Source of the DNA: Patescibacteria group bacterium
Lineage (GTDB): Bacteria; Patescibacteriota; Minisyncoccia; Phycocordibacterales; Phycocordibacteraceae
DNA: 61,480 bases
Assembly (NCBI GenBank): GCA_038062735.1
Contig: JBBTWN010000009.1
Span: 1 to 61,480 of the forward strand
Reading direction: 5' to 3'
Each line of letters opens with the position of its first letter. Positions within the stretch are counted from its first letter, which is position 1. The position numbers and the translations under genes are program-made. A model generated the notes under the pieces. It saw only the letters and a program-made list of their open reading frames with translations. It searched no databases and was not told where the DNA came from. This document shows positions 2,410 through 57,459 of the stretch, in pieces.

Positions 2410-2515
2410 ACGGTGGAATTATACTTCTTCCTGGCAGATAAGTACAACTAGAGCTCTATTACCCTAGATTGCAGTTGATCAAACATTGCTGCGGTTGCAA
2501 TGTTAGCATAACTGT

Positions 2516-3067
2516 ATGATCAACCTGCATCAGTTTATTGTCGCTGGCACGCCGACGGCAGGAAAGTCGACGTTTTCGCACAAACTGATTGAGAAGTATT
2601 TTGTCCAGCACATCTGCATCGACCCGATTATCGAGGGGTTTGAAGATGTGTTTCCTGAACTTGGTATAACGCATAACGCAAATACGCACGAGGCGCACGT
2701 CGAAGTGTGCCAAAAATTTAGACCGTTTGTTTCGCGGATGATTGACGGGCTCGACGTCGATAATTTTGTTATCGAAGGTTTTCGTCTCCCCATAGCCGAT
2801 CTTCACGATAAATATCCGCATCTGCAGTACTTCGCTTTTGGTTATCCAAGCGATACGCCGGAGTCGCGGCTGGCGCTCTGCCGCAAGCACGACACGGATA
2901 ATTGGACTAACGAGGAGACCGACGAAGAGCTCTTAAAAACGTTTACTTTTTTGATTGATGAAAGCAAACGACTTGAAGAGGTCTGCAAAGAACGAAACAT
3001 TCCATTTTTCGATACCACGCAGGATTATTGGGGCTCGATCGACGCCGCGCTACACTCAGCGAAGTAG
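2516..3067 (+). CDS. P-loop NTPase / putative kinase
   Basis: Walker A GTPTAGKST near the N-terminus. 183 aa. TAGCAT lies 6 nt upstream of the ATG. Confidence 0.7.
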   Translation: MINLHQFIVAGTPTAGKSTFSHKLIEKYFVQHICIDPIIEGFEDVFPELGITHNANTHEAHVEVCQKFRPFVSRMIDGLDVDNFVIEGFRLPIADLHDKYPHLQYFAFGYPSDTPESRLALCRKHDTDNWTNEETDEELLKTFTFLIDESKRLEEVCKERNIPFFDTTQDYWGSIDAALHSAK

Positions 3068-3068
3068 T

Positions 3069-3491
3069 ATGGAAGAAGACAAAACGAAGCATTTTGTTGG
3101 CAAGATTGCACAAAAAGCGATTATTGTTCGCGACAAAAAGATTTTTGTCATGAAGGGTATTGGTGACGAGATCTGGGAGTTCCCCGGCGGACGACTTCAT
3201 GCTGGTGAAGAGCCAATCGATGGATTGAAACGCGAGCTTACAGAGGAGCTCGGAGTCGAAGTGCAAAACTTAAAGCCGTTTTGGTTTGGGCGGTCACTGC
3301 ACACAAAGACCAATACATGGCGTGTCCTCGCCGTATGGCTGGGTGCACTGCCGAAAAGCGCAAAGCTGAAGGTTGCAAAAGCAGAAGTTCAAGAATGTAA
3401 GTGGATTACTTTAGCAGAATTGAAAAAACTTCCGATGTATGAGGATTGCGGGCGAGCAGCAAAAGCGTATGTAAGTACGATACAAAAGTGA
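3069..3491 (+). CDS. NUDIX hydrolase
   Basis: Nudix box GGRLHAGEEPIDGLKRELTEELG. Start moved to ATG 3069, 2 nt after the upstream stop. Confidence 0.85.
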   Translation: MEEDKTKHFVGKIAQKAIIVRDKKIFVMKGIGDEIWEFPGGRLHAGEEPIDGLKRELTEELGVEVQNLKPFWFGRSLHTKTNTWRVLAVWLGALPKSAKLKVAKAEVQECKWITLAELKKLPMYEDCGRAAKAYVSTIQK

Positions 3492-3522
3492 CCACCAAGG
3501 CTCTCCTCGAGTATCTCTTTTT

Positions 3523-3741
3523 ATGAACGAATACATGGTTCGATTGGGTGACAAGCTTGCCAGGCTTAGAAAGATGTGGGGGGTTGAACAAGAAAGTTGT
3601 GAGGATGTGGGCAAAATGATTGGATCAGATTATCCGCTCGGGGGCGTGCCCGTCTCGCAGAGGGTAGAAACTGCAAAAAAGAATCTCAAACGTATTGAAG
3701 AATTTGCAGATAGGGTGCGAAGGGAAATGCAGAAGCGTTAG
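3523..3741 (+). CDS. hypothetical small protein (72 aa)
   Basis: ORF only. No motif recognised. Confidence 0.35.
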   Translation: MNEYMVRLGDKLARLRKMWGVEQESCEDVGKMIGSDYPLGGVPVSQRVETAKKNLKRIEEFADRVRREMQKR

Positions 3742-3763
3742 TATCTTGATCGTCACCGCATAT

Positions 3764-3792
3764 TTGCAAATGTAGAAAAGATATGATATAAC
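3764..3792 (+). promoter_or_regulatory. sigma70-like promoter: TTGCAA, 17-nt spacer, TGaTATAAC
   Basis: -35 at 3764-3769 and extended -10 at 3784-3792. The -10 ends 6 nt before the GTG at 3799. Confidence 0.55.
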
Positions 3793-3798
3793 TCGTTC

Positions 3799-4101
3799 GT
3801 GACGAAAGAACGAGAAAACAGAATACCATTGGTCGCACCAATGCTGCTTGAAAATGACACAGTTGTATCAGTAACTGAGGGGGATCGTGTGCACGTTGTC
3901 TATGTCGAAGCAACGACAGGTAAAAAACTTACGAAAACAGGCATTGTTTCAGAACCGCACACCGGTATGCACGGCTGGGGTTTTACGCTCACTGTCAAAG
4001 GCGAAGAATACCATCTCATCAGACCCTTTAACGTCGACATTCCAACGGGAGTTCATTTTCAGTCAATTAAGATATTGAAAAAAGCTACAAAGAGAAGGTA
4101 A
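3799..4101 (+). CDS. hypothetical small protein (100 aa)
   Basis: ORF with a promoter immediately upstream. The start is uncertain (GTG 3799 or ATG 3841). Confidence 0.45.
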   Translation: MTKERENRIPLVAPMLLENDTVVSVTEGDRVHVVYVEATTGKKLTKTGIVSEPHTGMHGWGFTLTVKGEEYHLIRPFNVDIPTGVHFQSIKILKKATKRR

Positions 4102-4572: not shown

Positions 4573-4612
4573 TACTCATCAGTACTTCATCTGGCTTCTG
4601 TAGACTGAACGG

Positions 4613-4837
4613 ATGGCACCAGAACATGTTCCGTTTAGCAGGGACGCGCGCGTAAGCGTTCGCGAGATTGGCCCGCGCAATGAGATTATTCGTGACCATC
4701 CAATGGGTATTGTTAAAAATATTCTCGCTAGCAAACGAGGTAAACAGCAGATAGTAGTGCTTGGACAGGAGGGTCTGATTCGTGTCCCGTGGCCTGAGCC
4801 AAAGCGCGGTCAGCGAAAAATCATTCGCTATTTATAA
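4613..4837 (+). CDS. hypothetical small protein (74 aa)
   Basis: ORF with TAGACT (4601-4606) 6 nt upstream of the ATG. Confidence 0.45.
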   Translation: MAPEHVPFSRDARVSVREIGPRNEIIRDHPMGIVKNILASKRGKQQIVVLGQEGLIRVPWPEPKRGQRKIIRYL

Positions 4838-5014: not shown

Positions 5015-7087
5015 TCACACTTTGCGCAGCACCCTCTTTTTCTTAGCTGTCGATAAAATTGCATCAAACTCTCTAATTCCTACAGGTTTGGTTAGGTGAT
5101 AGTCAAAACCAGCAAGCCTCGCTCGCGCCTTGTCGTCGTCTTGGCCGTATCCGGTGACCGCGATTAAGATTGGTTGGACGATTGAGGATTTTCTAAGCTC
5201 CCGCGCAATCTCATACCCATCGCGGTCAGGGAGGCCAATGTCCAAAATAGCGACTGTAGGAGAAAATACTTCTGCTGTGGCTAAGGCTGAGTCACCGTCG
5301 AATGCAAGGCGAACTTCGTGGCCACGATGGGCAAGCAGCTTCCCCAGACCCTCTGCCGCTGGTTCATTGTCGTCGACTACAAGAATTTTGTGTCGAGCGG
5401 TCCCTGTACTCGCCACTTTGCTTTTAGGTACTGGCTCTGGGGTTGTGACGCCCTTCTTTTCTTGTACGCGCGGCAATTCGATAATAAATTCACTGCCTCT
5501 ACCCAAGCCTTCACTCATCGCGGTAATGGCGCCACCGTGGAGTTCGACCAATTTTTTGGTGAGCGAAAGGCCGATACCGAGACCAGCACTCTGCTTCCCG
5601 CCGTCTCGCGCGACCTGGAGGAAGGGTTCAAATATTTGTGTAAGCATGTGCGGTGCTATCCCGATGCCGTTATCACGAACCCGTATGGTGACCGCCTGCG
5701 CCGTTTGCGTCGCATTAATGACGATCATACCGCCCGGGTTTGTATACTTTGCAGCATTGTTAAGGATGTTAACCATGACTTGCTCAAGCCTAAGCGCCTC
5801 GCCCAAAACAAGAAGCCGTTCTTCTCCGCCGGAGACAGTGACTGAGTGTTGATTTGATTTCATAACAGGAGCACTGGCGACTACAGAATGAGCGATGACC
5901 ATGCGCATATCAACCCGCTCGGTATTGAGTTTTATCTTTCGTTCTGAAATACGCGATATATCAAGGAGATCATCCAAAAGCCCGGTCGCATTTTTGAGTT
6001 GCTTATCCATAATCGCAACTGCCTGCATCGCGTCGCGACTCCCGAGGCCCTTAAGTTTTATAAGTTCAAGTGCGCTTACGACAGGGGCAAGTGGATTTCT
6101 TAACTCATGCGCGAGTACGGCAAGAAATTCAGTTTTTGCTCGATCCTCTGATCTGATTTTGTTCAATGCAAATTCCATTTTAGTGACGTACTCTCCCAAT
6201 TTCTCACTGGTGTATTTGTGTTCTTTAACGATTGCTGCAAAAACGAGAAATCCAATTGACATCGTGGCCGTGTATATTTGCAGATAGAGTGCGCCTTCGG
6301 TGTATGCGGTGGCCGTGAACGGTCCATACCCAAGCGCCGTAGCGATAACCGCGATCGCGAGATTCAGCCCAATGGCGAGCGTGGTGCCACGCGGCCCAAA
6401 TTGTATCGCTGCCCATATGAGTGGACCTATCGCGAGGTAGAGGAGTGGGATGTGATCAGGAATAAAGGGAGGCCTCAGAAAGGTAACCCAATTCACTAGC
6501 CCAACAAACCCAAGGAGCAGCACAAATTCAGTCACATGCTCACGAAATGTCCCAACGGGGTATGCGTACCCCGACGCCCACGTTATCAAAAGTGGTGCGA
6601 TGACCAGAGCGCCAAGGATATCTCCAAAGAGCCACGTTACCCACGTGAGTGGTATCTCATTGATTGTAATCAAGCCGCCAAGCCATAAACTGGTCACTCC
6701 AATTACTGCGCTGAAGAGGCTCGCTGCGGTAACAGAAGCAAGAAATGCAAATACCTGTTTAAGTTTGCGAAACAATTCGTTCGGAACGGTGAAGCGGCTG
6801 ATAAGATACGCTCCGGCGAGTGCCTCGAGCGTGTTGCCCGTGGCGATGCCTGCGGCTACCAAAAATGGTGCCCCGAATAAAAGATTTATACTCAGCGCTC
6901 CAAGAATGATAGACGGCCATAACCGATACCCACCGATCGCAAGCGCACCGATTGCAATGCCAGTTGGCACCCAGACTGGCGCTGCAAATGTATTAACTGA
7001 GTCAAATTGTAGACAGAGGTATGCCGTTCCTACATAGACTGTAAAGACAATGAGATTCCAAAAGAGATCACGACTTCGCACGTGCAT
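5015..7087 (-). CDS. hybrid sensor histidine kinase (MASE1-like membrane domain, HisKA, HATPase_c, C-terminal receiver)
   Basis: About 8 N-terminal TM helices. H-box LAVLAHELRNPLAP, N/G boxes (ILNNAAKYT, DNGIGI, GLGIGLS). Receiver KILVVDDNE...DIGLPDRDG...TKP. Confidence 0.9.
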   Translation of the reverse strand: MHVRSRDLFWNLIVFTVYVGTAYLCLQFDSVNTFAAPVWVPTGIAIGALAIGGYRLWPSIILGALSINLLFGAPFLVAAGIATGNTLEALAGAYLISRFTVPNELFRKLKQVFAFLASVTAASLFSAVIGVTSLWLGGLITINEIPLTWVTWLFGDILGALVIAPLLITWASGYAYPVGTFREHVTEFVLLLGFVGLVNWVTFLRPPFIPDHIPLLYLAIGPLIWAAIQFGPRGTTLAIGLNLAIAVIATALGYGPFTATAYTEGALYLQIYTATMSIGFLVFAAIVKEHKYTSEKLGEYVTKMEFALNKIRSEDRAKTEFLAVLAHELRNPLAPVVSALELIKLKGLGSRDAMQAVAIMDKQLKNATGLLDDLLDISRISERKIKLNTERVDMRMVIAHSVVASAPVMKSNQHSVTVSGGEERLLVLGEALRLEQVMVNILNNAAKYTNPGGMIVINATQTAQAVTIRVRDNGIGIAPHMLTQIFEPFLQVARDGGKQSAGLGIGLSLTKKLVELHGGAITAMSEGLGRGSEFIIELPRVQEKKGVTTPEPVPKSKVASTGTARHKILVVDDNEPAAEGLGKLLAHRGHEVRLAFDGDSALATAEVFSPTVAILDIGLPDRDGYEIARELRKSSIVQPILIAVTGYGQDDDKARARLAGFDYHLTKPVGIREFDAILSTAKKKRVLRKV

Positions 7088-7127
7088 ATTAGAACATTAG
7101 ATGTATGAAGAGTTCATGAAGAGATGG

Positions 7128-7739
7128 TTATTTTGGCCACTCAGTGAGTCGGCCTGCCTTAAGCTCCATGGGGTCAGCTTTCCGTATGTATTTTTTGTTT
7201 CCTTTTGGCACAAGAGGGTGGTGCGCGAGCGCGTCTAGCTTTGTATCAATCCACCACAAATGGCTTTCATCAGTAACCCATTCAGTACCAAGTTGTTTCA
7301 GATTGAGCGGATCAGAGTAAGACTCAAATGTTTTTTCCCCATTTGTGTTCATAAACCATTCGTGAAAGTAGGAGAGTACGAGCTCGCGTATATTTTTGTA
7401 GACAGGGTCACGAAAGCGGATAGTTGCATGATTTGTCTTTGATATCGCGCCCCAATAGCCGTTCACTTTGTACAACGTCAAAATGTGATCATAGTCTGGT
7501 CTACGCCCGCGCATATCCATAATGAGTGGCTGCTCTCCGTGGTACCACAGCGCGGCGGCGGCGATAAGCGCGCCTTCAATGCAATGAGCAGTATTTTTTT
7601 TGAGTGCCATGCGGGGGCTGTAGTGCGTGTCACCGTCACACTCAAAGTTCATCGGGATGGTATCAAGGAAGTCTTGAATTTTGATTGGAGACGAAAGTTT
7701 TTTTAAAATCGTCTCTTCATTCTTGGTTAGACCAAACAT
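7128..7739 (-). CDS. hypothetical protein, possible transglutaminase-like Cys-His fold
   Basis: ORF 7128-7754 trimmed to ATG 7739 (TACTAT 6 nt upstream). AHCIEGALIAAAAL and DHILTLYKVNGYWGAISKTN resemble the Cys and His/Asp segments of transglutaminase-like peptidases. The fold call is weak. Confidence 0.5.
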   Translation of the reverse strand: MFGLTKNEETILKKLSSPIKIQDFLDTIPMNFECDGDTHYSPRMALKKNTAHCIEGALIAAAALWYHGEQPLIMDMRGRRPDYDHILTLYKVNGYWGAISKTNHATIRFRDPVYKNIRELVLSYFHEWFMNTNGEKTFESYSDPLNLKQLGTEWVTDESHLWWIDTKLDALAHHPLVPKGNKKYIRKADPMELKAGRLTEWPK

Positions 7740-7753
7740 GACCTTATAGTACA

Positions 7754-9106
7754 ATGACCCACATGAGTGCGTGGGCAGAGTACTTTAAGGGTAGGCGGGT
7801 GACCGTCATGGGTATCGACCCTGAAGGACGTGGTGTCCAGGACGCTCTGTTTGCTGCACAGCACGGGGCAGACGTTATCGCGACGGATGTGAAGGGTGAC
7901 GAGGCACTTCGCGCGTCACTCAACGTACTGCGATACCAACCCTCAATTAAGTACCGGCTCGGTGGGCACGTAGAAGAGGACTTCACAAAAGTTGACTTAG
8001 TTATCCGTGCCGCTTCGGCACCCCTGGATTCGCCATATCTTACTGCTGCACGAAATGCAGGAGTCGCGATCGAGACCGATGAGACATTGTTTCTTGCGCT
8101 CGCGCCGCCGGTGACACTCGTTGGGGTGACGGGGACTCGCGGCAAAACGACGACGACGCAACTCCTCTATGAAATAGTGCACGCGCATAAACCCGATAAC
8201 ACATTTCTTGCGGGTAACGTTCGTGGCGCGGCAGCGGTACCACTTCTTGATGCGGTCCATGTGGGCGACACCATAGTTATGGAACTTTCAAGCTGGCAGC
8301 TTCAACAATTTGGAGAAAAAAAAATAAGCCCAAAAATCGCTGTGTTTACGACGTTTTATCCTGACCACCTTAACTACTATCATGGGAGTATCGACGCCTA
8401 TCTTGGAGACAAAGCGCACTCTTTTTTGAATCAAGCACCAGGGGATACGTTGGTCGTGTCGACGCAGGTTCTGCCAATGTTGCAAGAAAAGTATTGGCCC
8501 CTCGTCCGCGCGCAGGCGCTTGTTGCAGATCCTGCCAAATTTCCATCTGGGTGGTCGCTTAAAATACCCGGTGCGCACAATGTATTGAACGCGATGTGTG
8601 CCATCGAAGCAGCCCGCGCGCTCAATGTCCCCGAAGAAAGTATCAAAACTGCAGTTGAAAATTTTAAAGGAGTTCCCGGGAGACTTGAACTTATTCGTGA
8701 GGTGCATGGCGTCACCTATTATAACGACACCACGTCGACATCCCCAGACGCGACGCTTGCGGCACTCCAAGCGCTAAAAAAGGAAGGAGCATCAAAGGTT
8801 ATTTTAATTTTTGGCGGCGCTGACAAAACGCTCGATATGTCTGCTTTGGCAAAAGTTATCCCACAATTAACTAAGCACGCAGTTTTGTTAGCAGGAACGG
8901 GAGCAGATGTATTACTGGCTGATTTCCCATCGCTCGCTGACATTCAGGTATGTGACCGGCTTCAAGACGCTTTTCACGATGCGGTCCAACATGCATCATC
9001 CGGTGACTCTATAGTGCTAAGCCCCGGGTTCGCATCGTTCGGCATGTTCAAAAACGAATACGACCGTGGTGATCAGTTTACCGCACTCGTTAACGGGCTT
9101 GCATGA
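7754..9106 (+). CDS. murD: UDP-N-acetylmuramoylalanine--D-glutamate ligase
   Basis: N-terminal Rossmann segment, Mur ligase P-loop GVTGTRGKTTTT, and MurD-like length of 450 aa. The start may be the in-frame ATG at 7763. Confidence 0.9.
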   Translation: MTHMSAWAEYFKGRRVTVMGIDPEGRGVQDALFAAQHGADVIATDVKGDEALRASLNVLRYQPSIKYRLGGHVEEDFTKVDLVIRAASAPLDSPYLTAARNAGVAIETDETLFLALAPPVTLVGVTGTRGKTTTTQLLYEIVHAHKPDNTFLAGNVRGAAAVPLLDAVHVGDTIVMELSSWQLQQFGEKKISPKIAVFTTFYPDHLNYYHGSIDAYLGDKAHSFLNQAPGDTLVVSTQVLPMLQEKYWPLVRAQALVADPAKFPSGWSLKIPGAHNVLNAMCAIEAARALNVPEESIKTAVENFKGVPGRLELIREVHGVTYYNDTTSTSPDATLAALQALKKEGASKVILIFGGADKTLDMSALAKVIPQLTKHAVLLAGTGADVLLADFPSLADIQVCDRLQDAFHDAVQHASSGDSIVLSPGFASFGMFKNEYDRGDQFTALVNGLA

Positions 9107-12118: not shown

Positions 12119-12130
12119 TACACTGAAGAG

Positions 12131-12358
12131 ATGTCAAAGGCAGTTATCGTGATGGTTATTGGAATCATACTGGTGTTATTGCCGTACATGGGCATACCGA
12201 GCAGTGCAAAGACGTTTGTTATTGTCGGTGCCGGCACGATTCTCGTCATCCTGGGACTTTTGATACGAGTTGAGCGTTTGTGGATGTTGCGTGCACTCCA
12301 TGGCGGCCATGCAAACGATGCCTACGCAGAGAGTGGTACTCGACATGACGCCACATAA
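12131..12358 (+). CDS. small membrane protein (75 aa, two hydrophobic spans)
   Basis: ORF with two TM-like segments, packed tightly between rsmI and the next gene. Confidence 0.45.
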   Translation: MSKAVIVMVIGIILVLLPYMGIPSSAKTFVIVGAGTILVILGLLIRVERLWMLRALHGGHANDAYAESGTRHDAT

Positions 12359-13571: not shown

Positions 13572-13583
13572 TATACTGGATAT

Positions 13584-13979
13584 ATGGTGAGCATTCTTGA
13601 GTCTGCAGATATACTCGCCGGACTCTTGGTAAAACGGAGACATGAAAGTCCGATTTCTAAGTTGCGAACTAAGTTAGAAGTAAGGCTGTATAAATCGACG
13701 CCAGAAGAAAGAACAATGAGCAATAATGAATACAAAAACCTTAGTACAAGAGCACGACTTCTTTTTGAACGTGTTCCACCCGCAGCCCGCCCAGCAATAC
13801 GCAAAAGAATTGGTGAGGCGACTGGGCACTATCCTGAGCTTGACATGATGGTTCATGGCCTTGATCGGTATGATCTGACGCCCCGATATGCGCACCTCAA
13901 TATGCGTAGTCCAGTGAGAAGAATCGTTACTTTAAAGCGCGAAGATGGAAAGTTAAGAGCAGAGAGTAGAAAACTCTAA
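13584..13979 (+). CDS. hypothetical protein (131 aa)
   Basis: ORF with TATACT (13572-13577) 6 nt upstream of the ATG. Confidence 0.45.
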   Translation: MVSILESADILAGLLVKRRHESPISKLRTKLEVRLYKSTPEERTMSNNEYKNLSTRARLLFERVPPAARPAIRKRIGEATGHYPELDMMVHGLDRYDLTPRYAHLNMRSPVRRIVTLKREDGKLRAESRKL

Positions 13980-14021
13980 CGCGCAAGTATACCTGTATAC
14001 AACTTCCTATATACTAGTTGT

Positions 14022-15452
14022 ATGGACTGGGGTTCACGCATTACGTATCTCGCATCGACGGCGCTCAAGGAGCGTGTTACTCCGTTTGGTATAAAAGACA
14101 AAGATAGAAAACATCATGTATGTGTGTTGGGTCGTGTGGGGAGCGGACGTGCGGAATTTTTAACGCGGATGGCCATACAAGACATCGAGCGTGGCATCGG
14201 CATGGTGATCATCGATGCTGCAGGCAACATGGGCCCCATGCTTATGGAGCGGTTAAATCCTGAAGAGATTGAGCGGTTAGTGTATCTCGACGCGTCCGAC
14301 GCAGAGTATCCGTTTGTGTGGAATGTTGCAGAAGAGTTTCGCGGTTCTGCTCGCGGCAAGGAGCTTTTTGAAATGGGACTCGCCTCCATCTATCGCGTAA
14401 AGAAAAGCGAATTAACTGACGCGATCGCGGGGAGCATCTATAAAGACAAAGAAAAAACAATTATCGACGCGTATGCAATAGCGACTGATGAGAAGGTTCG
14501 CAAAGAGACGTTTCCAGAAGACGCCGACACGTCGCTTAAGTTTTATAATGCGTTCGAAAAAGAAAAGGAGACCGTCACAGATATGGAGGAACACGGACGC
14601 TATCTCGCGAAAGATACGATGGTGCGTAACCTGATTGGCCAGACAGATGCGAAGGTCAATCTTGCTGAGCTTGGCCGCGGCGCCATCGTCATTGTGGACG
14701 TGTCGCGCATACGCATTTTCCCTACGCGTATTACGCCACTAGTGCGTTTATTTATGTACGCCGCCCGCGCACGCGCTGCCGAGCTTGATGTGCCGGTGTC
14801 GCTCTACTTCCACGACTGCCTCCGTTATCTTTCAGAGTCGGACGCAGAGTCACTGTTTACTGACCGTTCGGTCGCGCTCTCGCTGTCGGACACCATTTAT
14901 CACGAAAGTGATTTGCCACTTCGTGAAAAGGCGCTTGCGCGCTGCGGGTCAGTCGTTTCTTTTCAGCCACACCCCATTGATCTCCCCATGGTCGAGAAAG
15001 TGTTTTATCCGTATGTGACGCCTGAAGAGTTATCAGGCCTTGATCAAGGCGAATCATGCGTCGCGCTCACCATAGACGCGGTGCGCACGCAGCCATTCTT
15101 TGCTGACGTTCTCCCGCTGGCAGAGCGCACCAATGTATCACTTCAGGACATTATTGGTGATTCTCGCTCACGATACACGACGCCCCGCACACAGGTCGAT
15201 TCTTGGTTTAAAGACCGTGCGCTCAGTTCTAACCCTCCACCGCCACCTCCTGCTCCGGGGGCTCCTGGAGGAGGTGGGAGTGGCTTTTCTGATGCCTTTA
15301 GAGCAATATTCCAAAAGCCGGGAGATCCTGTCACGCCTCCCGCAGCAGCAAAACCGCCGACACCAGCCCCACAAGAGGAGCCAGAAGAGTCTACTGAGGT
15401 TGCAGAGGACGTTCTCAAACGCCTTCTTTACGTCGGCCCCTTGCCGGCGTAG
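14022..15452 (+). CDS. TraD/VirD4/HerA-like P-loop protein with degenerate Walker A/B and a Pro/Gly-rich tail
   Basis: HHVCVLGRVGSGRAEFLTRMAIQDIERGIGMVIIDAAGN follows the coupling-protein pattern, but GSGR replaces GSGK. LYFHD sits where the Walker B DE box is expected. The C-terminus reads PPPPPPAPGAPGGGGSG. Confidence 0.6.
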   Translation: MDWGSRITYLASTALKERVTPFGIKDKDRKHHVCVLGRVGSGRAEFLTRMAIQDIERGIGMVIIDAAGNMGPMLMERLNPEEIERLVYLDASDAEYPFVWNVAEEFRGSARGKELFEMGLASIYRVKKSELTDAIAGSIYKDKEKTIIDAYAIATDEKVRKETFPEDADTSLKFYNAFEKEKETVTDMEEHGRYLAKDTMVRNLIGQTDAKVNLAELGRGAIVIVDVSRIRIFPTRITPLVRLFMYAARARAAELDVPVSLYFHDCLRYLSESDAESLFTDRSVALSLSDTIYHESDLPLREKALARCGSVVSFQPHPIDLPMVEKVFYPYVTPEELSGLDQGESCVALTIDAVRTQPFFADVLPLAERTNVSLQDIIGDSRSRYTTPRTQVDSWFKDRALSSNPPPPPPAPGAPGGGGSGFSDAFRAIFQKPGDPVTPPAAAKPPTPAPQEEPEESTEVAEDVLKRLLYVGPLPA

Positions 15453-15461
15453 CATGAGGGG

Positions 15462-46213: not shown

Positions 46214-47441
46214 TAATTAAATACATTGATAGTGAGACCAGTAATATGCGTGCAGCAATCCTCGCGGCTATGACGCCCCACAAACCAAAAAATAGTAGAC
46301 CAATGAGTGCAAGCCCAATTTGCGTCACCGCGCTCACAATTCCAAGAATGTACCGCTCGCGAATAGCGAGCTGCGAATCAAAATATGCAGCGGCGAGTAC
46401 CGCAGATAATAGAATGGTAAGCGCATACACCTGCGAATACACTAGTGACTCTATATATGTTGGAAAAAAGAGTGCAAAGAGGTACGGTGCGGCGACAATG
46501 TATGCAATGGTCACGACGGCCATGCCGATCGTCACGGGTATCGTTTTATCGAGGACAGCACGCCGCACCTCGTCGGCCGCTTTAACTGCAAACTTTGGTA
46601 CGGCAAGGGATGTAATGATTTTTAACGAACCGCGGAGGGTGTCTGGCATTGCCGTCGCAAACGCATACACAGCGAGCGCGGTGCCACCCATGTTCTGAAA
46701 GACTAGTATAGCGTCAGTTCGGCTCGCGAGCGCGCCAAGAAAGTTCAGGATGCTTGAGTGAATAGCCAGACGCGTTGCTTCAGGATCGCGTTCACTGTTA
46801 GTATGAAATTTTGATTTTGCATACCACTCGAATATAAGACCAATGCATGCAGTAGTAACCAGTAGTATCGCGATAAACAAAATGACCGAGTTAGAAAAAA
46901 ACAATGCTGCGATGATAAGCAGCGCGGGGATAACTCCTTGCAGTGTCGTTCCGAGCGCCTGCACGCGAAACTGTTTTTTTCCCGTGAGATAGGAACGAAA
47001 GAGCGATGAAACATTCGAAAATGGAGTGCAGAGAGCAATGATAGCGAATGACCACCCCAAGAGTTCGTTGGCGTTTAAGAAGTAATAGACACTTGCGCAT
47101 ATAGCGACGAACGATCCAATTAAAGATGAATAGAAGGTAAGGCGATAGCTATGCTCAAGTTCGCCGTCAAACCCACGTGCTGCCGCCCGGGTAAGTGCGG
47201 TTCCTACTCCAGTCAAGGACAGGGTGCTGATGATAGCGGCCAATGAAATAATGTATTTATAGTTTCCGTACAACTCTTTCTCGAGCAGATTTGCAAATGC
47301 TATGCCGAGCGCGAATGACGCGAGCACGCCGAGCACCTTTGCTAGAACGAGCCAAAAACCTGATCCAAACAAATAGGTCGAATCAGTCTTGATATACCCC
47401 TCAAGACGACGCTGCATTCCTCCGATATCCATCCCCTTCAT
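46203..47441 (-). CDS. polysaccharide flippase (Wzx/MOP family)
   Basis: 412 aa with about 12 TM segments and polysaccharide-biosynthesis-protein-like spacing. Confidence 0.75.
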   Translation of the reverse strand: MKGMDIGGMQRRLEGYIKTDSTYLFGSGFWLVLAKVLGVLASFALGIAFANLLEKELYGNYKYIISLAAIISTLSLTGVGTALTRAAARGFDGELEHSYRLTFYSSLIGSFVAICASVYYFLNANELLGWSFAIIALCTPFSNVSSLFRSYLTGKKQFRVQALGTTLQGVIPALLIIAALFFSNSVILFIAILLVTTACIGLIFEWYAKSKFHTNSERDPEATRLAIHSSILNFLGALASRTDAILVFQNMGGTALAVYAFATAMPDTLRGSLKIITSLAVPKFAVKAADEVRRAVLDKTIPVTIGMAVVTIAYIVAAPYLFALFFPTYIESLVYSQVYALTILLSAVLAAAYFDSQLAIRERYILGIVSAVTQIGLALIGLLFFGLWGVIAARIAARILLVSLSMYLIIRR

Positions 47442-47479
47442 ACTAGCGTGCCCTAGAGGGCAGTGATATAGTTACGTGT

Positions 47480-49669
47480 ATGACCTTGGCCGTTATTCTC
47501 CGTCGGACGATTATCTGTGGCATATTTTTGACCCCGTTTATTCCGCTTATCGTCGCCAATGACTTCTTTTTCCCGTTTATTACGGGCAAAAATTTTACGT
47601 TTAGGGTTATCGTCGAGGCTATCGCGACCTTGTGGGTGGCGCTCGCCCTAATAGATGTGACGGCACGACCTCGCCGCTCAGTGCTCCTGTGGGCCACCGG
47701 TGCATTTGTGTTGTCAATTCTAGTCTCAGCCGTTGTCGGTGAGAACTTCCATAAGAGCTTCTTTTCAAATTTTGAGCGTATGGAAGGGTGGTTGGGGCTC
47801 GCGCACATGGGTGCATTTTTCTTGGTGACGACGAGTGTTATGCAGGGAGAAAAAATATGGCGCTGGTTTTGGAACACGTCACTCGCTGTTTCAGTTGTCG
47901 TTGGTATTTACTGTGTATTCCAGCTCGCGGGGCTCGCAGAAATTCATCAGGGTGGCACGCGCATTGATGCAACGCTCGGAAACGCGACATATCTCGCCGT
48001 GTATATGCTTTTCCACGTCTTTATTGCGCTTCTCGCGCTCGCGCGCTGGACGAATGGCAACAAACTACTGCAACTCGCGTATGCCGCGATAGCAGTTTTT
48101 GATGCGGTGCTGATTTTCTACTCTGCAACTCGCGGTTCAATGTTGGGACTCGCTGGCGGACTCATGCTCGCGGGCCTCGTTATGGTCATCTGGGGCAAAG
48201 GCCTAGAGAAGCTCCGCATGGCTGGCGCCGCGATGTTTATTGTGGTGATACTTGCAGCCGGATTTCTCTACATGGTTAAAGATTCTGACTATGTAAAAAA
48301 TCATGAAATATTTGGTCGCCTCACCTCGCTCTCTCTTTCAGAAGGAGCGACACGTTTTACAGTTTGGAGTATGGCTATTCAAGGAGTTATGGAGCGGCCG
48401 ATCTTTGGTTGGGGACAAGAAAACTTTAACTACATCTTCAACAAGTATTACAAGGCGAGCATGTACGGACAGGAGCCGTGGTTTGATCGCGCACACAATG
48501 TGATCATGGACTGGCTCGTCGCAGGCGGTATTGTCGGCATTGTGCTTTATCTTTCGCTCTACGTGATAGTTATTTGGTATTTGTTCAGGCCCGGCTCTCC
48601 CTTTGATGTAGTTGAAAAAGCGTTACTCATTGGCCTTCTCGCCGCGCACGCGTTCCATAATCTGTTTGTGTTTGATCAGTTGGTATCATATATGTTCTTC
48701 TTCCTTATATTGGGGTACATCACGACGCGCGCGATACCACAAAATTCTATAGGTACACCGGTGTCGTCAAGTACCGCGCAGGCAGCACTCGCCGGATCGG
48801 TTGTTCTCGGCGCGCTTGTTTTCTATTTTGCAACCGCACAGAATATATATGCCACCCGAACGATTATTGAGGCGATACGTCCCCAAGAATCAGTCACCAA
48901 TCCCGGCACTGAAGATATCAGCATTAACCTCGCCAATTTTAAGCTCGTGGCTAACCATGGTGGTATTGGGCGTCAAGAAATTCGCGAGCAGTTAGTGGAT
49001 TTTGCCAATAGAAAGGCCGCGACGCCGGGCTACGATCAGGTGGTGGTTACCGAGCTCGTCCAACTCGCGCGTGACTCCTTTGCAGATGAAATCACAAAAA
49101 ACCCAGACGATGCACGTCTCCGCATATTCATGGGTGCATTTTTACGCGGTATTGGAGACACGCAGGGTGCGCAGGAGAATCTCGCTCGTGCGAGCGAGCT
49201 CAGTCCAGAAAAGCAGGCGATTATGTTTGAGCGCGGCATTTTGGAGCTCAATGCAGGCAATGTACAAGGGGCCGTGGATTGGTTCAAAAAAGCATATGAG
49301 AGTGAACCAAACTTTGAACAGGCGCGTGTGTTCTATGCTGCGCTCGCTATTCGCATTAAGGATTTTGAGCTTGCAGATTCACTCCTTATGCCACACTTTG
49401 GAACTCGAACCCCTGATGATCAATACATTCTGCAGGCCTATCTCGACATTGGCGATTTGGAGAGTGCGCTCGGCATTCTTAAGGGACGGCTCGAGAAAAA
49501 CCCAAACTCCGCTCAAGCACATATCGATTATGCGCTTGGACTCTACAAGTCGCGCAGGGATGTTGAGGCAGTGATCGAGCTCAGAAAGGCTATAGAAATT
49601 GAGCCACAATTTAAAGCGCAGGGCGAGGCATTTATTAAGGAGGTAGAAGCAGGGACGGCGCCTCGCTAG
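47480..49669 (+). CDS. O-antigen ligase/polymerase-like (Wzy_C) membrane protein with C-terminal TPR repeats
   Basis: Polytopic N-terminal 430 aa with YSATRGSMLGLAGGLML. The C-terminus carries TPR-like repeats (GAVDWFKKAYESEPNFEQA...). Confidence 0.8.
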   Translation: MTLAVILRRTIICGIFLTPFIPLIVANDFFFPFITGKNFTFRVIVEAIATLWVALALIDVTARPRRSVLLWATGAFVLSILVSAVVGENFHKSFFSNFERMEGWLGLAHMGAFFLVTTSVMQGEKIWRWFWNTSLAVSVVVGIYCVFQLAGLAEIHQGGTRIDATLGNATYLAVYMLFHVFIALLALARWTNGNKLLQLAYAAIAVFDAVLIFYSATRGSMLGLAGGLMLAGLVMVIWGKGLEKLRMAGAAMFIVVILAAGFLYMVKDSDYVKNHEIFGRLTSLSLSEGATRFTVWSMAIQGVMERPIFGWGQENFNYIFNKYYKASMYGQEPWFDRAHNVIMDWLVAGGIVGIVLYLSLYVIVIWYLFRPGSPFDVVEKALLIGLLAAHAFHNLFVFDQLVSYMFFFLILGYITTRAIPQNSIGTPVSSSTAQAALAGSVVLGALVFYFATAQNIYATRTIIEAIRPQESVTNPGTEDISINLANFKLVANHGGIGRQEIREQLVDFANRKAATPGYDQVVVTELVQLARDSFADEITKNPDDARLRIFMGAFLRGIGDTQGAQENLARASELSPEKQAIMFERGILELNAGNVQGAVDWFKKAYESEPNFEQARVFYAALAIRIKDFELADSLLMPHFGTRTPDDQYILQAYLDIGDLESALGILKGRLEKNPNSAQAHIDYALGLYKSRRDVEAVIELRKAIEIEPQFKAQGEAFIKEVEAGTAPR

Positions 49670-53695: not shown

Positions 53696-53719
53696 GTGTG
53701 CTGGTGGTAGGCTAGTTCT

Positions 53720-53977
53720 ATGTCCGAGGAGGCAGCACGTGCTCGCATACGGGAGATTTATGATGGAGTGCCGCTCCTCCGCGCTCGCCTCGGCGAACGT
53801 CTGAGTGGCGGCGAGAAGCTTATGCTCGACGGTGCACATCTCATGGCGCTGATGTTTCTCCGCTCTGGCGGACCATTTTCAGAAGTGACGAAGGAGATTT
53901 CCACAGCAGAGTCCATCGTTGCAACCATCAAACGTCGCCATAATACTAAGCCCGAGCTTGTGCGTACTTCACCATAA
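53720..53977 (+). CDS. hypothetical protein (85 aa)
   Basis: ORF with TGgTAGGCT (53705-53713) 6 nt upstream of the ATG. Confidence 0.45.
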   Translation: MSEEAARARIREIYDGVPLLRARLGERLSGGEKLMLDGAHLMALMFLRSGGPFSEVTKEISTAESIVATIKRRHNTKPELVRTSP

Positions 53978-53999: not shown

Positions 54000-54689
54000 C
54001 TACGTGTGGATGTTTATATACCCGACAAGCTCCTTCATCCTCTTTTCGGAGTACGTAAAATGAGGATTGGGAACAGCGATGACATAGAAGTGCGGGTAGA
54101 CTGGATCAAATAGATGATCGACGAGCGGATTGGTGAAATGAAACCCTCGAGTGGTGCTCGGCGTCCAGCCCCCAGCCTCAACGGTTTTTATGAGCGTATC
54201 TCGAGTGAAGAAGTTTACATGCGCATCGGATAGACTGCCCTGGAATTTTTTGAAACGCAGCAGCGACACCACCTTAGGAATACACGGCACTCCGAGAATG
54301 AGTATGCCGCCAGGCTCTAAGTAGTCTCGTATCTTGCGAAGAAAATTGTGCGTTGAATAGAGGTGTTCAAATAGGTTATTAGCAAAAATCACATCGTACT
54401 TTTCCTCCAAAACAAAACTATCCGATTCGATGTTCCCACATCTGATGTCTAACCCCTTTTCTTGTCCATAGGCAGCTTCAGATGGGGTGATAGTAACACC
54501 GGTGCTTCCTGTACCAAAGCGAGCAACAAACTCGCCAAACGTGCATCCAATATCGAGCACGCGTTTTTTGTCTAAACCAAAAGTCCTGACTATATTGTTA
54601 AACGTTTTTGATTTGGATGTATTTTCAAAACGTTTTTCTGTTTTCGGATTCATACGAGGACAGTACCATGTCCAATCAGTATACGCCAT
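54000..54689 (-). CDS. class I SAM-dependent methyltransferase
   Basis: VLDIGCTFGEF motif I and DVIFANNLFEHL. Confidence 0.8.
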   Translation of the reverse strand: MAYTDWTWYCPRMNPKTEKRFENTSKSKTFNNIVRTFGLDKKRVLDIGCTFGEFVARFGTGSTGVTITPSEAAYGQEKGLDIRCGNIESDSFVLEEKYDVIFANNLFEHLYSTHNFLRKIRDYLEPGGILILGVPCIPKVVSLLRFKKFQGSLSDAHVNFFTRDTLIKTVEAGGWTPSTTRGFHFTNPLVDHLFDPVYPHFYVIAVPNPHFTYSEKRMKELVGYINIHT

Positions 54690-54696
54690 TTCTTAG

Positions 54697-54705
54697 TGGT
54701 ATACT
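54697..54705 (+). promoter_or_regulatory. extended -10 TGgTATACT, overlapping a minus-strand TATACC box
   Basis: The hexamer at 54700-54705 ends 6 nt before ATG 54712. The reverse-strand hexamer at 54698-54703 lies 8 nt before the minus-strand ATG at 54689. Confidence 0.5.
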
Positions 54706-54711
54706 TTTTGC

Positions 54712-55047
54712 ATGGTACATCTACTACTACGTGTCCTCGGGGGTGCTGCGGCAGTGCTTGCTGCAGCGTATTTGGTACCTGGCATCCATGTCGCTGATTT
54801 TTATGTGGCGCTTATCGTTGCCATTTTACTCGGTATTATCGGTGTGACATTAAAGCCCATACTCGCCATTCTCACTCTGCCGATTACACTTCTGACATTC
54901 GGACTATTCTCGTTCATCATTAATGCAGCTATTCTGTGGTTTGTCGCTAGTTTTGTCGACGGGTTTGATATTGATACGTTTGTCGCTGCGCTCATAGGCT
55001 CGCTCGTTATATCAGTTGTACAGTGGGTGTTACATCGCATTGTGTGA
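54712..55047 (+). CDS. phage holin family 4 / DUF360 (YvlD-like) membrane protein
   Basis: AAAYLVPGIHVADF...LKPILAILTLPITLLTFGLFSFIINAAILW...VDGFDIDTF closely follows the family consensus. Confidence 0.85.
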   Translation: MVHLLLRVLGGAAAVLAAAYLVPGIHVADFYVALIVAILLGIIGVTLKPILAILTLPITLLTFGLFSFIINAAILWFVASFVDGFDIDTFVAALIGSLVISVVQWVLHRIV

Positions 55048-55059
55048 TAGGGTAGGTGA

Positions 55060-56040
55060 ATGGCGTTAGTTGATTGCATAACCATAAAGGCAGCAGCGGG
55101 AAAGGGAGGCGACGGAGTTGTTCGGTGGCTCCATATCAAAGGAAAAGAGAAAGGGGGGCCATCTGGGGGTGATGGCGGACGCGGCGGTAATATTGTATTT
55201 CGTGCGGTGCGCGACCTTGGTGTTTTGGCACGGTACAAAGGCAAGACGCAGTTTAGGGCACAAAATGGCGAGTCCGGAGGATCCGACAAAAAGCATGGAG
55301 CTGACGGCGCTTCTATATATATAGAAGTACCGGTTGGGTCCGTCGTGACACAGGGCAGAGGAGACGTCTTTGAGCTCCTGAGTGATGGCCAAGAGGTAAT
55401 TGCGCTCAAAGGCGGCAACGGTGGCTATGGAAACGATCACTTTAAATCCTCAACCAACATTAATCCGTATGAAGCGGTGCCCGGGCAGCAGGGTGAGTCA
55501 GATACCTTTCGGATAGAACTTAAAATTATTGCTGACGCGGGGCTCGTTGGACTTCCAAACGCCGGGAAATCATCACTCTTAAACGCGCTTACTCGTGCAC
55601 AGGCTAAGGTAGGGGATTACCCATTCACTACACTCGAACCCAATCTCGGTGTTCTTTATAACTACGTTATAGCGGACATCCCGGGTCTTATCGAGGGAGC
55701 CGCAGAGGGCAAAGGTCTTGGTCATGAGTTCTTGAAGCATATTGAACGGACGCGGGGCATAGTACATCTGGTAGCTTTAGACGGAGAGGACCCGGTGAAG
55801 GCCTATTCCACCGTTCGCGCTGAGCTTAAGAGCTACAATGCTGCACTAGTCGGGCGTCCCGAGCTCATATTTTTGACTAAATCAGATACTGTGGACGCCG
55901 GGCGGGTAGACAACATGAAACTGGCTATAGCGGGGCTCGCTGCCCCCGGGGCCACCATTGAAGCCATTACGGTGCTTGACGACGCAGTTATGAAGACCAC
56001 ATCTGACACCCTAGTACAATTTCTCCAACAATCGGTGTAA
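55060..56040 (+). CDS. obg: GTPase Obg
   Basis: Glycine-rich Obg fold (GKGGDGVVRW, GGPSGGDGGRGGNIVF). G1 GLPNAGKSS, G3 DIPG, G4 TKSD. Confidence 0.92.
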   Translation: MALVDCITIKAAAGKGGDGVVRWLHIKGKEKGGPSGGDGGRGGNIVFRAVRDLGVLARYKGKTQFRAQNGESGGSDKKHGADGASIYIEVPVGSVVTQGRGDVFELLSDGQEVIALKGGNGGYGNDHFKSSTNINPYEAVPGQQGESDTFRIELKIIADAGLVGLPNAGKSSLLNALTRAQAKVGDYPFTTLEPNLGVLYNYVIADIPGLIEGAAEGKGLGHEFLKHIERTRGIVHLVALDGEDPVKAYSTVRAELKSYNAALVGRPELIFLTKSDTVDAGRVDNMKLAIAGLAAPGATIEAITVLDDAVMKTTSDTLVQFLQQSV

Positions 56041-56049
56041 CATAGGGGT

Positions 56050-57459
56050 ATGAGCGCCTATCGCCCCACGATCGGGCTTGAGATCCATGCCGAGCTTAAG
56101 ACGCGCACCAAGATGTTTTGTACATCAAAGAACGACCCCGACGAAGAAAATCCGAATGTTAATGTGTGTCCCGTGTGTATGGCATATCCGGGGACCCTTC
56201 CCGTCGTTAACAAAGAAGCGGTGCACAGTGTACTGCGCGTTGGGGCTGCAGTCGGTGGGACCATAGCAGACTACACAGAGTTCGATAGAAAGAATTATTT
56301 TTATCCTGACATACCGAAGGGGTATCAGATATCACAGTACGAGTATCCTTTGGTAAAGGGGGGGGAGCTCGCCGGTGTAAAAATCACACGAATTCATCTT
56401 GAAGAAGATACAGCAAATGCAAAACACCGAGGGGATACAAGTCTCATCGATTTTAATCGTGCGGGCATGCCACTTATGGAGCTAGTTACAGAACCCGTTA
56501 TTCATGACGCGGTAACTGCAGGAAACTTTGCACGCGAGCTCCAACAGCTGCTTCGGGCACTCGGCGTTGCTGAGGCACAGATGGAGAAGGGGCAGATGCG
56601 CGTCGAAGTAAACATTTCAGTATCAAAAGATGATACGCTCGGCAAAAGAAGTGAAATCAAAAATATCAACTCGTTTCGTGCAGCAGAGCGTGCAATCGAG
56701 TTTGAAATAAAAAGACAGACAGCGGTCCTTGGGTCCGGGGGAGTGTTGCTGCAAGAGACTCGCGGGTTTGATGAAAATACTGGCGAGACGTTTAGTCAAC
56801 GACTCAAAGAGGATTCAAACGACTATCGTTACTTCCCTGACCCAGACATACCAAAGCTAAAAATTTCTGACATCCCAGAATTTGCTCGCGATGTTCTCGA
56901 TGCATCACTTCCTGAACTTCCAGCGACACGGCGAGCACGGCTCGTGGCACTTGGTGTGCGTCGAGAAGATGCAGATGTGCTTATCGCAGATCACTTGTAC
57001 GGCGCTTTTTTTGATGCGGAGGTTGCAGGACAACTCGCTCCTGGGCTGATCGGCAAAGGTTCAAACTATTTACTTACTGATGTTCGTGCAGTCGCCACTG
57101 AAAGTATGTTGAACAATTTGCGCAACGGCGTCTTTGGAGATGTGATTCGCATGACAGACGCTGGCGATCTATCAAGTCGCGGAACAAAAGATCTGTTACT
57201 TCGTCTTATGGAGAAGGGGGGTGATGCGCACACTGTTGCAGAAAAGGAGGGAATGCTTCAAATGAAGGACACGGCTCTCATCGAGCGCATTGTGGATGAG
57301 GTGGTTGTCGAGCACCAGGGTGTCGTTATGGAGGTCCAAAAGGGTAAGGAGGAGGCGATGAAGTTTTTAATTGGTATGGTCATGAAGAAGTCAAAAGGGG
57401 CAGCAAATCCAACTGATGCAGCAACGATCTTGAAGTCAAAGATTCAACAGAAGACTTAA
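56050..57459 (+). CDS. gatB: Asp/Glu-tRNA(Asn/Gln) amidotransferase subunit B
   Basis: PTIGLEIHAELKTRTKMFC, CPVCMAYPGTLP, and a C-terminal GatB/YqeY domain. Confidence 0.93.
   Translation: MSAYRPTIGLEIHAELKTRTKMFCTSKNDPDEENPNVNVCPVCMAYPGTLPVVNKEAVHSVLRVGAAVGGTIADYTEFDRKNYFYPDIPKGYQISQYEYPLVKGGELAGVKITRIHLEEDTANAKHRGDTSLIDFNRAGMPLMELVTEPVIHDAVTAGNFARELQQLLRALGVAEAQMEKGQMRVEVNISVSKDDTLGKRSEIKNINSFRAAERAIEFEIKRQTAVLGSGGVLLQETRGFDENTGETFSQRLKEDSNDYRYFPDPDIPKLKISDIPEFARDVLDASLPELPATRRARLVALGVRREDADVLIADHLYGAFFDAEVAGQLAPGLIGKGSNYLLTDVRAVATESMLNNLRNGVFGDVIRMTDAGDLSSRGTKDLLLRLMEKGGDAHTVAEKEGMLQMKDTALIERIVDEVVVEHQGVVMEVQKGKEEAMKFLIGMVMKKSKGAANPTDAATILKSKIQQKT

Follow-up and report, generated by a model that had tools for sequence, protein, structure and literature searches.

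Candidate -10 boxes placed six nucleotides before start codons suggest leaderless initiation in a Parcubacteria-like bacterium without a CCUCC anti-Shine-Dalgarno core

How does a ribosome select its start codons when its 16S rRNA has lost the sequence that pairs with Shine-Dalgarno (SD) sites? The question is raised by a 61,480-nt stretch of a Patescibacteria group bacterium (GenBank assembly GCA_038062735.1, contig JBBTWN010000009.1, positions 1 to 61,480), referred to here as the window. The window has a GC content of about 49% and carries one end of a 16S rRNA gene, with protein genes downstream. An initial annotation had quoted about 18 genes in which a TAnnnT hexamer ends 6 to 8 nt before the start codon, and had proposed that the hexamers are -10 boxes and the mRNAs leaderless. 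All of the quoted hexamers, spacers and start codons are present at their coordinates, but only 15 of the 18 hexamers are strict TAnnnT. The association of box and start codon was confirmed to be real and well beyond chance. It suggests an answer in which transcription would begin on the start codon itself.

The 16S rRNA gene occupies positions 1 to 767 of the plus strand as a 3' half truncated by the window start (Rfam SSU_rRNA_bacteria, 688 bits, model positions 740-1533). Direct reading of its end at 754-764 gives the 3' tail GGATCATATCC, with AUAUCC in place of the CCUCC anti-SD core, in agreement with the earlier statement that the anti-SD is missing. The tail of the rRNA is GGAUCAUAUCC (end: ...GUCGUGGAUCAUAUCC), and the E. 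coli counterpart is GGAUCACCUCC. An identical tail was found in 13 GTDB species genomes, 12 of them labelled as Parcubacteria-group, Patescibacteria or metagenome-assembled genome (MAG) and one (L081) labelled as Gammaproteobacteria. Since the same tail is shared by 13 species, it is a conserved variant and not the decay of a single genome. The profile of GGAG, GAGG and AGGA upstream of start codons is flat, at most a trace, with no SD hump in the window or in the related loci described below. Pairing to the tail was tested because 6-8 nt is also the SD spacing. Mean duplex energies of the 20 nt upstream of starts with the window tail (GGAUCAUAUCCAUG) and with the canonical tail were compared for boxed, coupled and other genes, and they were no better than those of dinucleotide shuffles.

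Two tests of the box-start association were kept independent of the start codons chosen by the initial annotation, to avoid circularity. The first test requires no gene calls: every TANNNT-N(d)-ATG on both strands was scored for an open reading frame (ORF) of at least 80 codons after the ATG. TANNNT-N6-ATG occurs 34 times on both strands, and 22 of the 34 open such ORFs, versus about 5/27 (about 20%) at other spacings. The binomial p value for the excess at d = 6 is about 2e-8. The in-frame spacings d = 3 and d = 9 gave only 5 and 6 long-ORF sites versus the 22 at d = 6. The second test used 59 ORFs backed by length, and mostly also by Pfam, with the start set by a fixed rule (the longest ORF, or the first ATG). 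TANNNT was found at a spacing of exactly 6 before 18-19 of the 59 rule-set starts, and at 0-4 of them for every other spacing from 0 to 40; spacings 7 or 8 had 1-3 sites each. Dinucleotide-preserving shuffles of the upstream 50 nt (n = 1,000) yielded 1.4 ± 1.2 sites at spacing 6, with a maximum of 6-8. This shuffled-sequence control had been set beforehand as a possible refutation, and its outcome supports the observation. About a dozen cases had been missed at first, including 7763, 12131, 15462, 18104, 25522, 28310, 30085 and 55060 on the plus strand and 2409, 37533, 47432 and 57880 on the minus strand.

Several of the boxed start codons are also supported by the encoded proteins. AsnB-type glutamine amidotransferases require Cys as residue 2, and the sole matching codons in the two AsnB-type genes are ATG-TGC at 42525 (MCG) and ATG-TGT at 28310 (MCS). 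Both are preceded by TAnnnT-6; the intra-operon box of 28310 is TATTCT-6-ATG at 28298..28312 on the plus strand. These two starts are fixed independently because the Met-Cys N-terminus is obligatory for this enzyme type. Similarly, Pfam models begin within residues 1-12 of Obg (55060), GatB (56050), a PF04020 Phage_holin_4_2 membrane protein (54712), the MASE1 kinase (7087), a UDP-glucose dehydrogenase-like protein (34658) and an HD protein (18104). The GatB orthologs align from residue 1-4.

The anatomy of the motif was obtained by aligning 21 spacing-6 sites on the ATG, with T-12, A-11 and T-7 fixed by construction. The middle of the hexamer is variable (e.g., TAGGGT, TATACT, TACAAT). T-15 and G-14 are each present in 11 of the 21 sites and form a TGn extension. 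The extension had been noted earlier at several sites, and it was counted at 11 of the 30 tabulated ones. Position -1 is a pyrimidine in 16/21 sites (T in 12), and position +1 is the purine A of the ATG. No information content was found at -30 to -37 in the aligned sites, the place of a -35 element. A generic scan for -35/-10 hexamer pairs returned 12 sites, below the shuffles (22.3 ± 4.2); the small number of matches fits promoters that lack a -35 element and is not useful as positive evidence. The sole site with a good -35 element is TTGATT-17-TATAAT-8-ATG before gene 38704 (38667..38706, plus strand).

The anchors A-11 and T-7, a TG that may be absent, a discriminator of 6 nt and a start at Y-1/R+1 are what sigma-70 extended -10 promoters would show. 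The aligned sites support the view that these are promoters of this type with a predicted transcription start on the A of the ATG, and they do not have the look of a base-pairing element. The window has no -35 signal, as expected of the -35-independent extended -10 promoter (TGnTATAAT); the TG one base 5' of the hexamer is present at some of its sites and very strongly in relatives. Only about 40% of the window sites have TGn, and many hexamers (TAGGGT, TAGGCT) are far from TATAAT. The hexamers are candidate -10 elements for the host sigma factor and would act independently of a -35 element.

The distribution of the boxes follows the gene layout. A box is present before 3 of 20 overlapping, coupled genes (25522, 28310 and 30085), versus about three quarters of the genes preceded by a gap. 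A motif required by the ribosome would be expected to be commonest at overlapping starts, and the motif is observed to be rarest there. The start/stop overlaps of 4 or 8 nt that had been described for downstream genes were recovered from the ORF coordinates. Thirteen are of 4 nt (ATGA; 9103, 9846, 16058, 16927, 20644 on the minus strand, 25522, 26364, 30085, 31628, 40780 on the minus strand, 43999, 44712 and 45482), and three are of 8 nt (22341, 27421 and 28310). The operon interior at 43999..45485 on the plus strand is an example, with 4 nt shared between the preceding stop and the start at each of 43999, 44712 and 45482. In coupling of the E. coli type, an SD sequence inside the upstream gene usually assists. 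The 13 overlaps of 4 nt and the 3 of 8 nt are shared with termination-reinitiation coupling at ATGA; the difference from the E. coli type is that no SD can act here. Coupling of the downstream genes by reinitiation at these overlaps is proposed.

Divergent gene pairs show how little space is left upstream of the boxed starts. The start-to-start distances are 22 bp at 54689/54712, 23 bp at 7739/7763, 30 bp at 37533/37564, 34 bp at 42525/42560 and 38 bp at 47441/47480, and the -10 boxes abut or overlap. With divergent starts 22-38 bp apart, there is therefore no space for 5' untranslated regions (UTRs) plus separate promoters. Overlapping boxes are seen at 7737..7765, with TACTAT-6-ATG before 7739 on the minus strand and TACAAT-7-ATG before the Mur ligase gene 7763 on the plus strand. 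Back-to-back promoters would lie in the 34-bp gap at 42523..42562, with TATAGT-6-ATG before the AsnB gene 42525 (minus strand, MCG) and TAGTAT-6-ATG before 42560 (plus strand). The pair at 47430..47482 has TAGTAT-7-ATG before 47432 (minus strand) and TGaTATAGT-7-ATG before 47480 (plus strand), and gene 37533 has TACAAT-6-ATG at 37531..37545 on the minus strand, 30 bp from gene 37564. In the 22-bp region at 54687..54714, TGgTATACT-6-ATG (54712, plus strand) and TATACC-8-ATG (54689, minus strand) lie on the same TATA core. What reads as a hexamer before 54689 is just the TGGTATACT box of gene 54712 seen from the other strand, and an alternative start for the minus-strand gene is 54653, with TACTGT-6.

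The term operon-first, applied earlier to the 18 sites, does not clearly hold for 4613, 13584 and 56050, which begin 10-13 nt after a same-strand ORF, or for the MASE1 hybrid histidine kinase gene 5015-7087 (TAATGT-6-ATG at 7085..7099, minus strand), for which the distance is 40 nt. Six boxed genes begin 5-13 nt after a same-strand gene, with the box on or just past its stop codon; in three of the six, the TAA or TAG stop supplies the first bases of the hexamer. The six sites, all on the plus strand, are as follows. TAGACT-6-ATG of 4613 (4601..4615) has its TAG as the stop codon of the upstream ORF 4313-4603, and TAGCAT-6-ATG of 15462 (15450..15464) has its TAG as the stop of gene 14022-15452. 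TAACAT-6-ATG of gatB at 56050 (56038..56052) has its TAA as the obg stop, and in TGaTAGGGT-6-ATG of obg at 55060 (55048..55062) the TGA is the stop of the upstream gene. TATACT-6-ATG of 13584 (13572..13586) lies right after the stop codon of a DUF4015 gene, and TGcTAGGGT-6-ATG of 18104 (18092..18106) precedes the gene of the HD-domain protein. Our reading is that the six boxes are internal promoters in tight packing. They form the weakest part of the set and do not belong to operon-first genes.

Taken with the sequence comparisons below, these results make leaderless initiation combined with translational coupling the probable mechanism. The sequences show the motif with its geometry and statistics, its link to genes preceded by a gap, a 16S rRNA that has lost the anti-SD core, the missing SD signal and the recurrence of the pattern in the lineage; the transcription start sites and the mode of ribosome recruitment are inferred. 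The host is an uncultured Parcubacteria/Paceibacteria bacterium of the candidate phyla radiation (CPR/Patescibacteria) whose 16S rRNA has lost CCUCC. Most of its transcription units would be read from -35-independent promoters of the sigma-70 type, often with TGn and with little beyond TAnnnT. With 6 nt, or occasionally 7-8 nt, between the hexamer and the start codon, RNA polymerase would start on the A of the ATG, and the 5' UTR of the mRNA would be absent or only 1-2 nt long. The 5'-terminal AUG would be bound directly by the ribosome with initiator tRNA, and pairing between mRNA and rRNA would not be needed. Ribosomes would reach downstream cistrons by terminating and reinitiating where stop and start overlap, at ATGA or over 8 nt, and a few of these cistrons would use their own -10 boxes inside or just past the 3' end of the preceding gene.

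The same architecture was found in relatives. Seventy-five Paceibacteria-like loci around gatB were pooled. The pool covers about 1.2 Mb, in which 1,025 ORFs, taken from their first ATG, reach 120 codons or more. TANNNT was counted 164, 82, 71 and 80 times at d = 6, 7, 8 and 9, versus a background of about 35, and TGNTANNNT was counted 76, 38, 22 and 29 times at the same spacings, versus a background of about 3. Non-CPR control loci (n = 6) have no -10 peak and show a weak bump at the SD position instead. TAnnnT lies 5-9 nt before the start in about 40 of 76 gatB orthologs, in many of them in the extended form TGnTAnnnT; typical boxes are TTGATATACT, TTGCTATAAT and TTGCTATAGT, followed by 6-7 nt and the ATG. 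Since the boxes recur at the starts of relatives, the architecture is a property of the lineage and is not specific to the window. At a single gene, the box of 14022 (TATACT-6-ATG, 14010..14024, plus strand) is kept with its spacer and start in the syntenic locus L094, where the ortholog begins at the same ATGGACTGG, with an in-frame stop 7 codons before it and TATACT at the same distance.

The placement of the host was examined with both GatB and the rRNA. GatB has at most 58% identity to any species representative, and its best matches are all Patescibacteria/Parcubacteria/Paceibacteria MAGs. By 16S, the window is closest to a "Candidatus Parcubacteria" river MAG (L090), with 96% identity over the last 820 nt including the spacer and 84% identity overall to window positions 1-1764 (16S 3' half, spacer and tRNA-Ile). 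The L090 locus is the rRNA region up to tRNA-Ile only and offers no orthologous promoters for comparison. The 16S flanks of CCUCC-tail Patescibacteria and AUAUCC-tail Paceibacteria were uninformative, with few protein genes per locus and a pattern that also matched Actinomycetota and Chloroflexota.

Three other explanations of the boxes were weighed. One of them accepts true -10 boxes and lets transcription start a few bases before the ATG, or heterogeneously, which would give short leaders (1-5 nt or more) with unstructured A/U-rich 5' ends. Start-site choice by the sigma-70 holoenzyme varies by ±1-2 nt, which counts for such leaders. The spacers of 7-10 nt at 2409, 38704, 47480, 7763 and secA (51230), and the spread of the relatives' peak over 6-9 nt, point in the same direction. 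However, the distribution in the window is sharp, with 18-19 sites at 6 nt and 1-3 at 7 or 8, and the A at +1 with a pyrimidine at -1 in 16/21 sites is the preferred start context. We consider this version unlikely. Leaders of 5 nt or less are conventionally still leaderless, and the version is more a refinement than a different mechanism.

In another explanation, the hexamer acts in the RNA as a ribosome-binding element: the altered tail would pair with it as with a replacement SD, or S1 or some other protein would bind it. The mRNAs would in that case have leaders, with promoters further upstream. A spacing of 6-8 nt is also the classic SD-to-start distance (PMC6028130). The conservation of the tail GGAUCAUAUCC in 13 species suggests selection, the spacer at 13584, GGATAT, matches the complement of AUAUCC at every base, and at the six boxed genes that lie 5-13 nt after a same-strand gene a re-initiation signal is plausible. 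Against this, only hexamer positions 1, 2 and 6 are fixed and the middle is free, at odds with contiguous pairing, and the reverse complement of the tail (GGAUAUGAUCC) is unlike TAnnnT. Duplex energies with the window tail are no better than those of shuffles for boxed, coupled or other genes. The TGn extension and the Y-1/R+1 context are features of promoters at the DNA level. The motif is missing before 17 of the 20 overlapping internal genes, where a ribosome-binding site (RBS) would be most needed, and between divergent starts spaced by 22-38 bp, separate upstream promoters would have to extend into coding sequence. An RNA element is accordingly judged very unlikely. Replacement SD pairing in particular was rejected, as no gene class pairs better than dinucleotide shuffles with either tail.

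The remaining explanation, that base composition, stop codons or the choice of starts from ORFs created the pattern artificially, with TAA/TAG and AT-rich intergenic DNA lying beside the first ATG, is largely refuted by the spacing counts, the shuffles and the non-CPR controls and is hardly credible: an in-frame TAA or TAG opens nine of the d = 6 hexamers that precede long ORFs, and three of these are the upstream gene's stop codon, but over half of the hexamers are not stop codons (TATACT, TATAGT, TACAAT), the in-frame spacings 3 and 9 with equal stop-codon opportunity gave 5 and 6 sites versus 22, shuffles gave 1.4 versus the observed 18-19, the same peak appears in the gene-call-free test, and the non-CPR control loci are without it.

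Leaderless initiation had been put forward earlier as the default. The sequence-level tests favour -10 boxes at start codons, and the word default is justified, though universal would go too far; several observations weigh against the leaderless view. About a quarter of the gap-preceded genes have no box at 6-8 nt or have a box 10-18 nt upstream. These genes would have short or real leaders, and they include murB (49874), with no box, secA (51230), with TACACT-10, 57992, with TATAAT-18, 37564, with TATACT-13, and further rsmI and 21425, the latter following a bidirectional terminator hairpin. Leadered initiation without SD must therefore also occur. Three of the 18 quoted hexamers are non-canonical: TATAAC before the GTG start of 3799 (TGaTATAAC-6-GTG at 3787..3801, plus strand, with TTGCAA 17 bp upstream), TATAAA before 34658 and TATACC before 54689. 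The TAGTATAAA region before ATG 34658 (34643..34660, plus strand), which can be parsed as TATAAA-6 or TAGTAT-9, belongs to the UDP-glucose dehydrogenase-like gene. Some of the six junction boxes could be by-products of the gene junction. Many boxed ORFs are hypothetical, with starts set by ORF logic alone. The conservation in L094 is partial: gene 14022 keeps its box, whereas for the kinase, 15462, rsmI and the DUF4015 gene the comparison is unclear or shows a difference. Over their first 30-50 nt, the putative leaderless mRNAs fold no less than windows from inside the same genes do.

Box geometry of this kind has been described in other bacteria. In the 'group C' genomes of the GeneMarkS-2 survey, a Pribnow box lies 6-8 nt from the starts of operon-first genes; such genomes were found mainly in Actinobacteria (90%) and Deinococcus-Thermus (97%), and the remaining genes use SD sites (PMC6028130). 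Among the works that the survey cites are leaderless transcriptomes of Mycobacterium tuberculosis (Cortes 2013) and Deinococcus deserti (de Groot 2014). Its main text does not mention Paceibacteria or the CPR (PMC6028130). The window shares with group C the TAnnnT 6-8 nt before operon-first starts, the weak or absent -35, the coincidence of start codon and predicted transcription start, and the large share of units concerned, here read from sequence alone. Group C organisms keep the canonical anti-SD and SD sites for leadered and internal genes, whereas in the window CCUCC is gone and no SD signal is seen. With both lost, leaderless initiation and coupling are therefore not one option among several. 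The SD-type RBS that the remaining genes of group C use was not found in the window, and neither were the marks of SD-led initiation, a CCUCC core and a complementary purine-rich motif 5-10 nt upstream. The window does not fit the non-SD RBS genomes of the Bacteroidota type ('group B'), which have one upstream motif before all genes, operon-internal ones included, and keep the anti-SD: here the motif is absent before 17/20 overlapping genes and the anti-SD is not retained.

The rRNA side of this arrangement is known for Parcubacteria. In the passages of Tsurumaki et al. (2022, RNA 28:1041, PMC9297842) that concern these bacteria, the CCUCCU motif is given for only 48% of Parcubacteria 16S genes, SD helices are presumed not to form, and bS21 is frequently absent. 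Likewise, Campbellbacteria and Wolfebacteria are named among the 'SD-scarce' organisms lacking CCUCC in the corresponding part of a second report (PLoS One 2024, PMC10783764). The loss in the window is the same phenomenon at the rRNA level, and the tail GGAUCAUAUCC is one such variant. In these passages both papers cover pairing-independent initiation from the rRNA side and not the layout of mRNAs and promoters (PMC9297842, PMC10783764). A literature search on leaderless initiation or Shine-Dalgarno in CPR, Patescibacteria or Parcubacteria found no description of the promoter and mRNA side for this lineage, neither of -10 boxes that touch start codons nor of a layout that combines leaderless mRNAs with coupling. 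The box geometry (from group C) and the anti-SD loss (from Parcubacteria) are known, and their combination does not seem to have been described for this lineage. What appears to be new is a genome probably dominated by leaderless genes in a lineage where this was implicit, with no SD system as fallback.

Mammalian mitochondria offer a further likeness: their small-subunit rRNA also lacks an anti-SD, and their mRNAs have no leader or almost none, as proposed for the mRNAs of the window. The two systems differ in that the few mitochondrial mRNAs come from processed polycistronic transcripts, and their 5' ends are not set by -10 promoters at each start.

The window and the roughly 1.2 Mb of related loci suggest a concrete and testable answer to how anti-SD-less Parcubacteria ribosomes find start codons. 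It is an evenly balanced question whether the whole class (Paceibacteria/Parcubacteria), which makes up a large part of the CPR, has abandoned SD pairing, with leaderless mRNAs from minimal extended -10 promoters plus reinitiation at overlaps as the main and obligate mode of initiation. The ribosomal protein uL1 is often missing in Paceibacteria/Parcubacteria. If the class-wide view is true, the reduced ribosome (no CCUCC, a conserved AUAUCC tail, and bS21 and uL1 often missing) would be adapted to AUGs at the very 5' end, and bacterial cells would then have a counterpart to the initiation of mitochondria or to that of archaeal style. For gene calling, starts could be placed from the -10 box, and RBS-based scoring would be meaningless in these genomes. 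The arrangement also matters for how promoters and expression cassettes are designed in CPR genetics, and for ideas on the evolution of SD-independent initiation in reduced genomes.

The remaining boxed sites are distributed over both strands. Those on the plus strand are TGtTAGCAT-6-ATG of gene 2516-3067 (2504..2518), TGaTACACT-6-ATG of a 75-codon hydrophobic ORF at 12131 (12119..12133), TGgTAGGCT-6-ATG of 53720 (53708..53722) and TGtTATAGT-6-ATG of 23299 (23287..23301). The last of these is the first gene of a glycosyltransferase operon, and a GC-rich hairpin with TTTGT lies just upstream. Those on the minus strand are TATAAT-8-ATG of 2409, which encodes a DUF4145 protein (box at 2418..2423), TACAAT-6-ATG of the methyltransferase gene 33951-34586 (34584..34598) and TGaTATACT-6-ATG of 57880, which encodes an HTH protein (57878..57892).

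Some start codons differ from those of the longest ORFs. The SecA start is ATG 51230 (MSLLDSIFG) and not the long-ORF GTG 50972; the ORF 50972-53695 overstates SecA. A hairpin at 21370-21412 (CAACCTC-AAAT-GAGGTTG), flanked by a run of A and, at the opposite end, a run of T, has the look of a bidirectional terminator between divergently ending units. From this hairpin, the start of the GNAT gene is ATG 21425 and not the longest-ORF ATG 21392. The ORF 2516-3067 shares about 110 nt with the ORF 2955-3491, which is in another frame, and neither has a Pfam match. The two may be hypothetical genes that overlap, or a single gene (2516-3491) split by a frameshift or an assembly error.

Between murB and secA, at 50905-51190, lies a self-contained unit with TGtTATAGT (about 50913-50921), then 6 nt, then an A outside any ATG. 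The unit continues for about 250 nt to a strong terminator hairpin, GCCCCGG-TGT-CCGGGGC with a T-run (about 51160-51187). It holds a very basic 21-codon ORF (MAKKKAKKTTKKAKRSSKKRR) and could be a small RNA or a gene for a tiny basic protein. Rfam gave only sub-threshold, terminator-driven matches for this spacer. The gene murB itself has GGGGAG 6 nt before its ATG (49850-49873), which is SD-like though the 16S rRNA cannot pair with it; it is the sole such string noticed and probably due to chance.

The 16S tail has two further properties. GGAU and AUCC within it are self-complementary and make a 4-bp stem with a 3-nt loop possible, and in loci L081-L093 the tail GGAUCAUAUCC mostly precedes NNNNGGAAU. 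The tRNA-Ile gene at 1636-1709 follows an 870-nt spacer 3' of the 16S gene, and protein genes come next. No 23S gene was found in the remaining 60 kb downstream of the 16S gene, and no tRNA-Ala there either; the rRNA genes are unlinked (window 1-4300).

The window encodes Mur ligases, a racemase, MurB, the MASE1 hybrid histidine kinase, SecA, Obg and GatB. A tandem duplication with a period of 660 nt and 72% identity lies at 60284-61463, and the array continues past the window end. Its paired minus-strand ORFs are Val/Pro-rich (MMEERPVPPPAAPR... and ...VNTPVxGVVAPIGVLSMVP...) and have no Pfam match; their coding status and strand are uncertain. A surface-polysaccharide/glycosylation cluster of about 35 kb (14022-49669) is very large for a small-genome CPR bacterium. 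It contains at least 7 GT4 glycosyltransferases, about 9 methyltransferases and the two AsnB-type amidotransferases, together with two truncated-looking UDP-glucose dehydrogenase-like genes, a Wzx-like flippase and a Wzy/O-antigen-ligase-TPR fusion.

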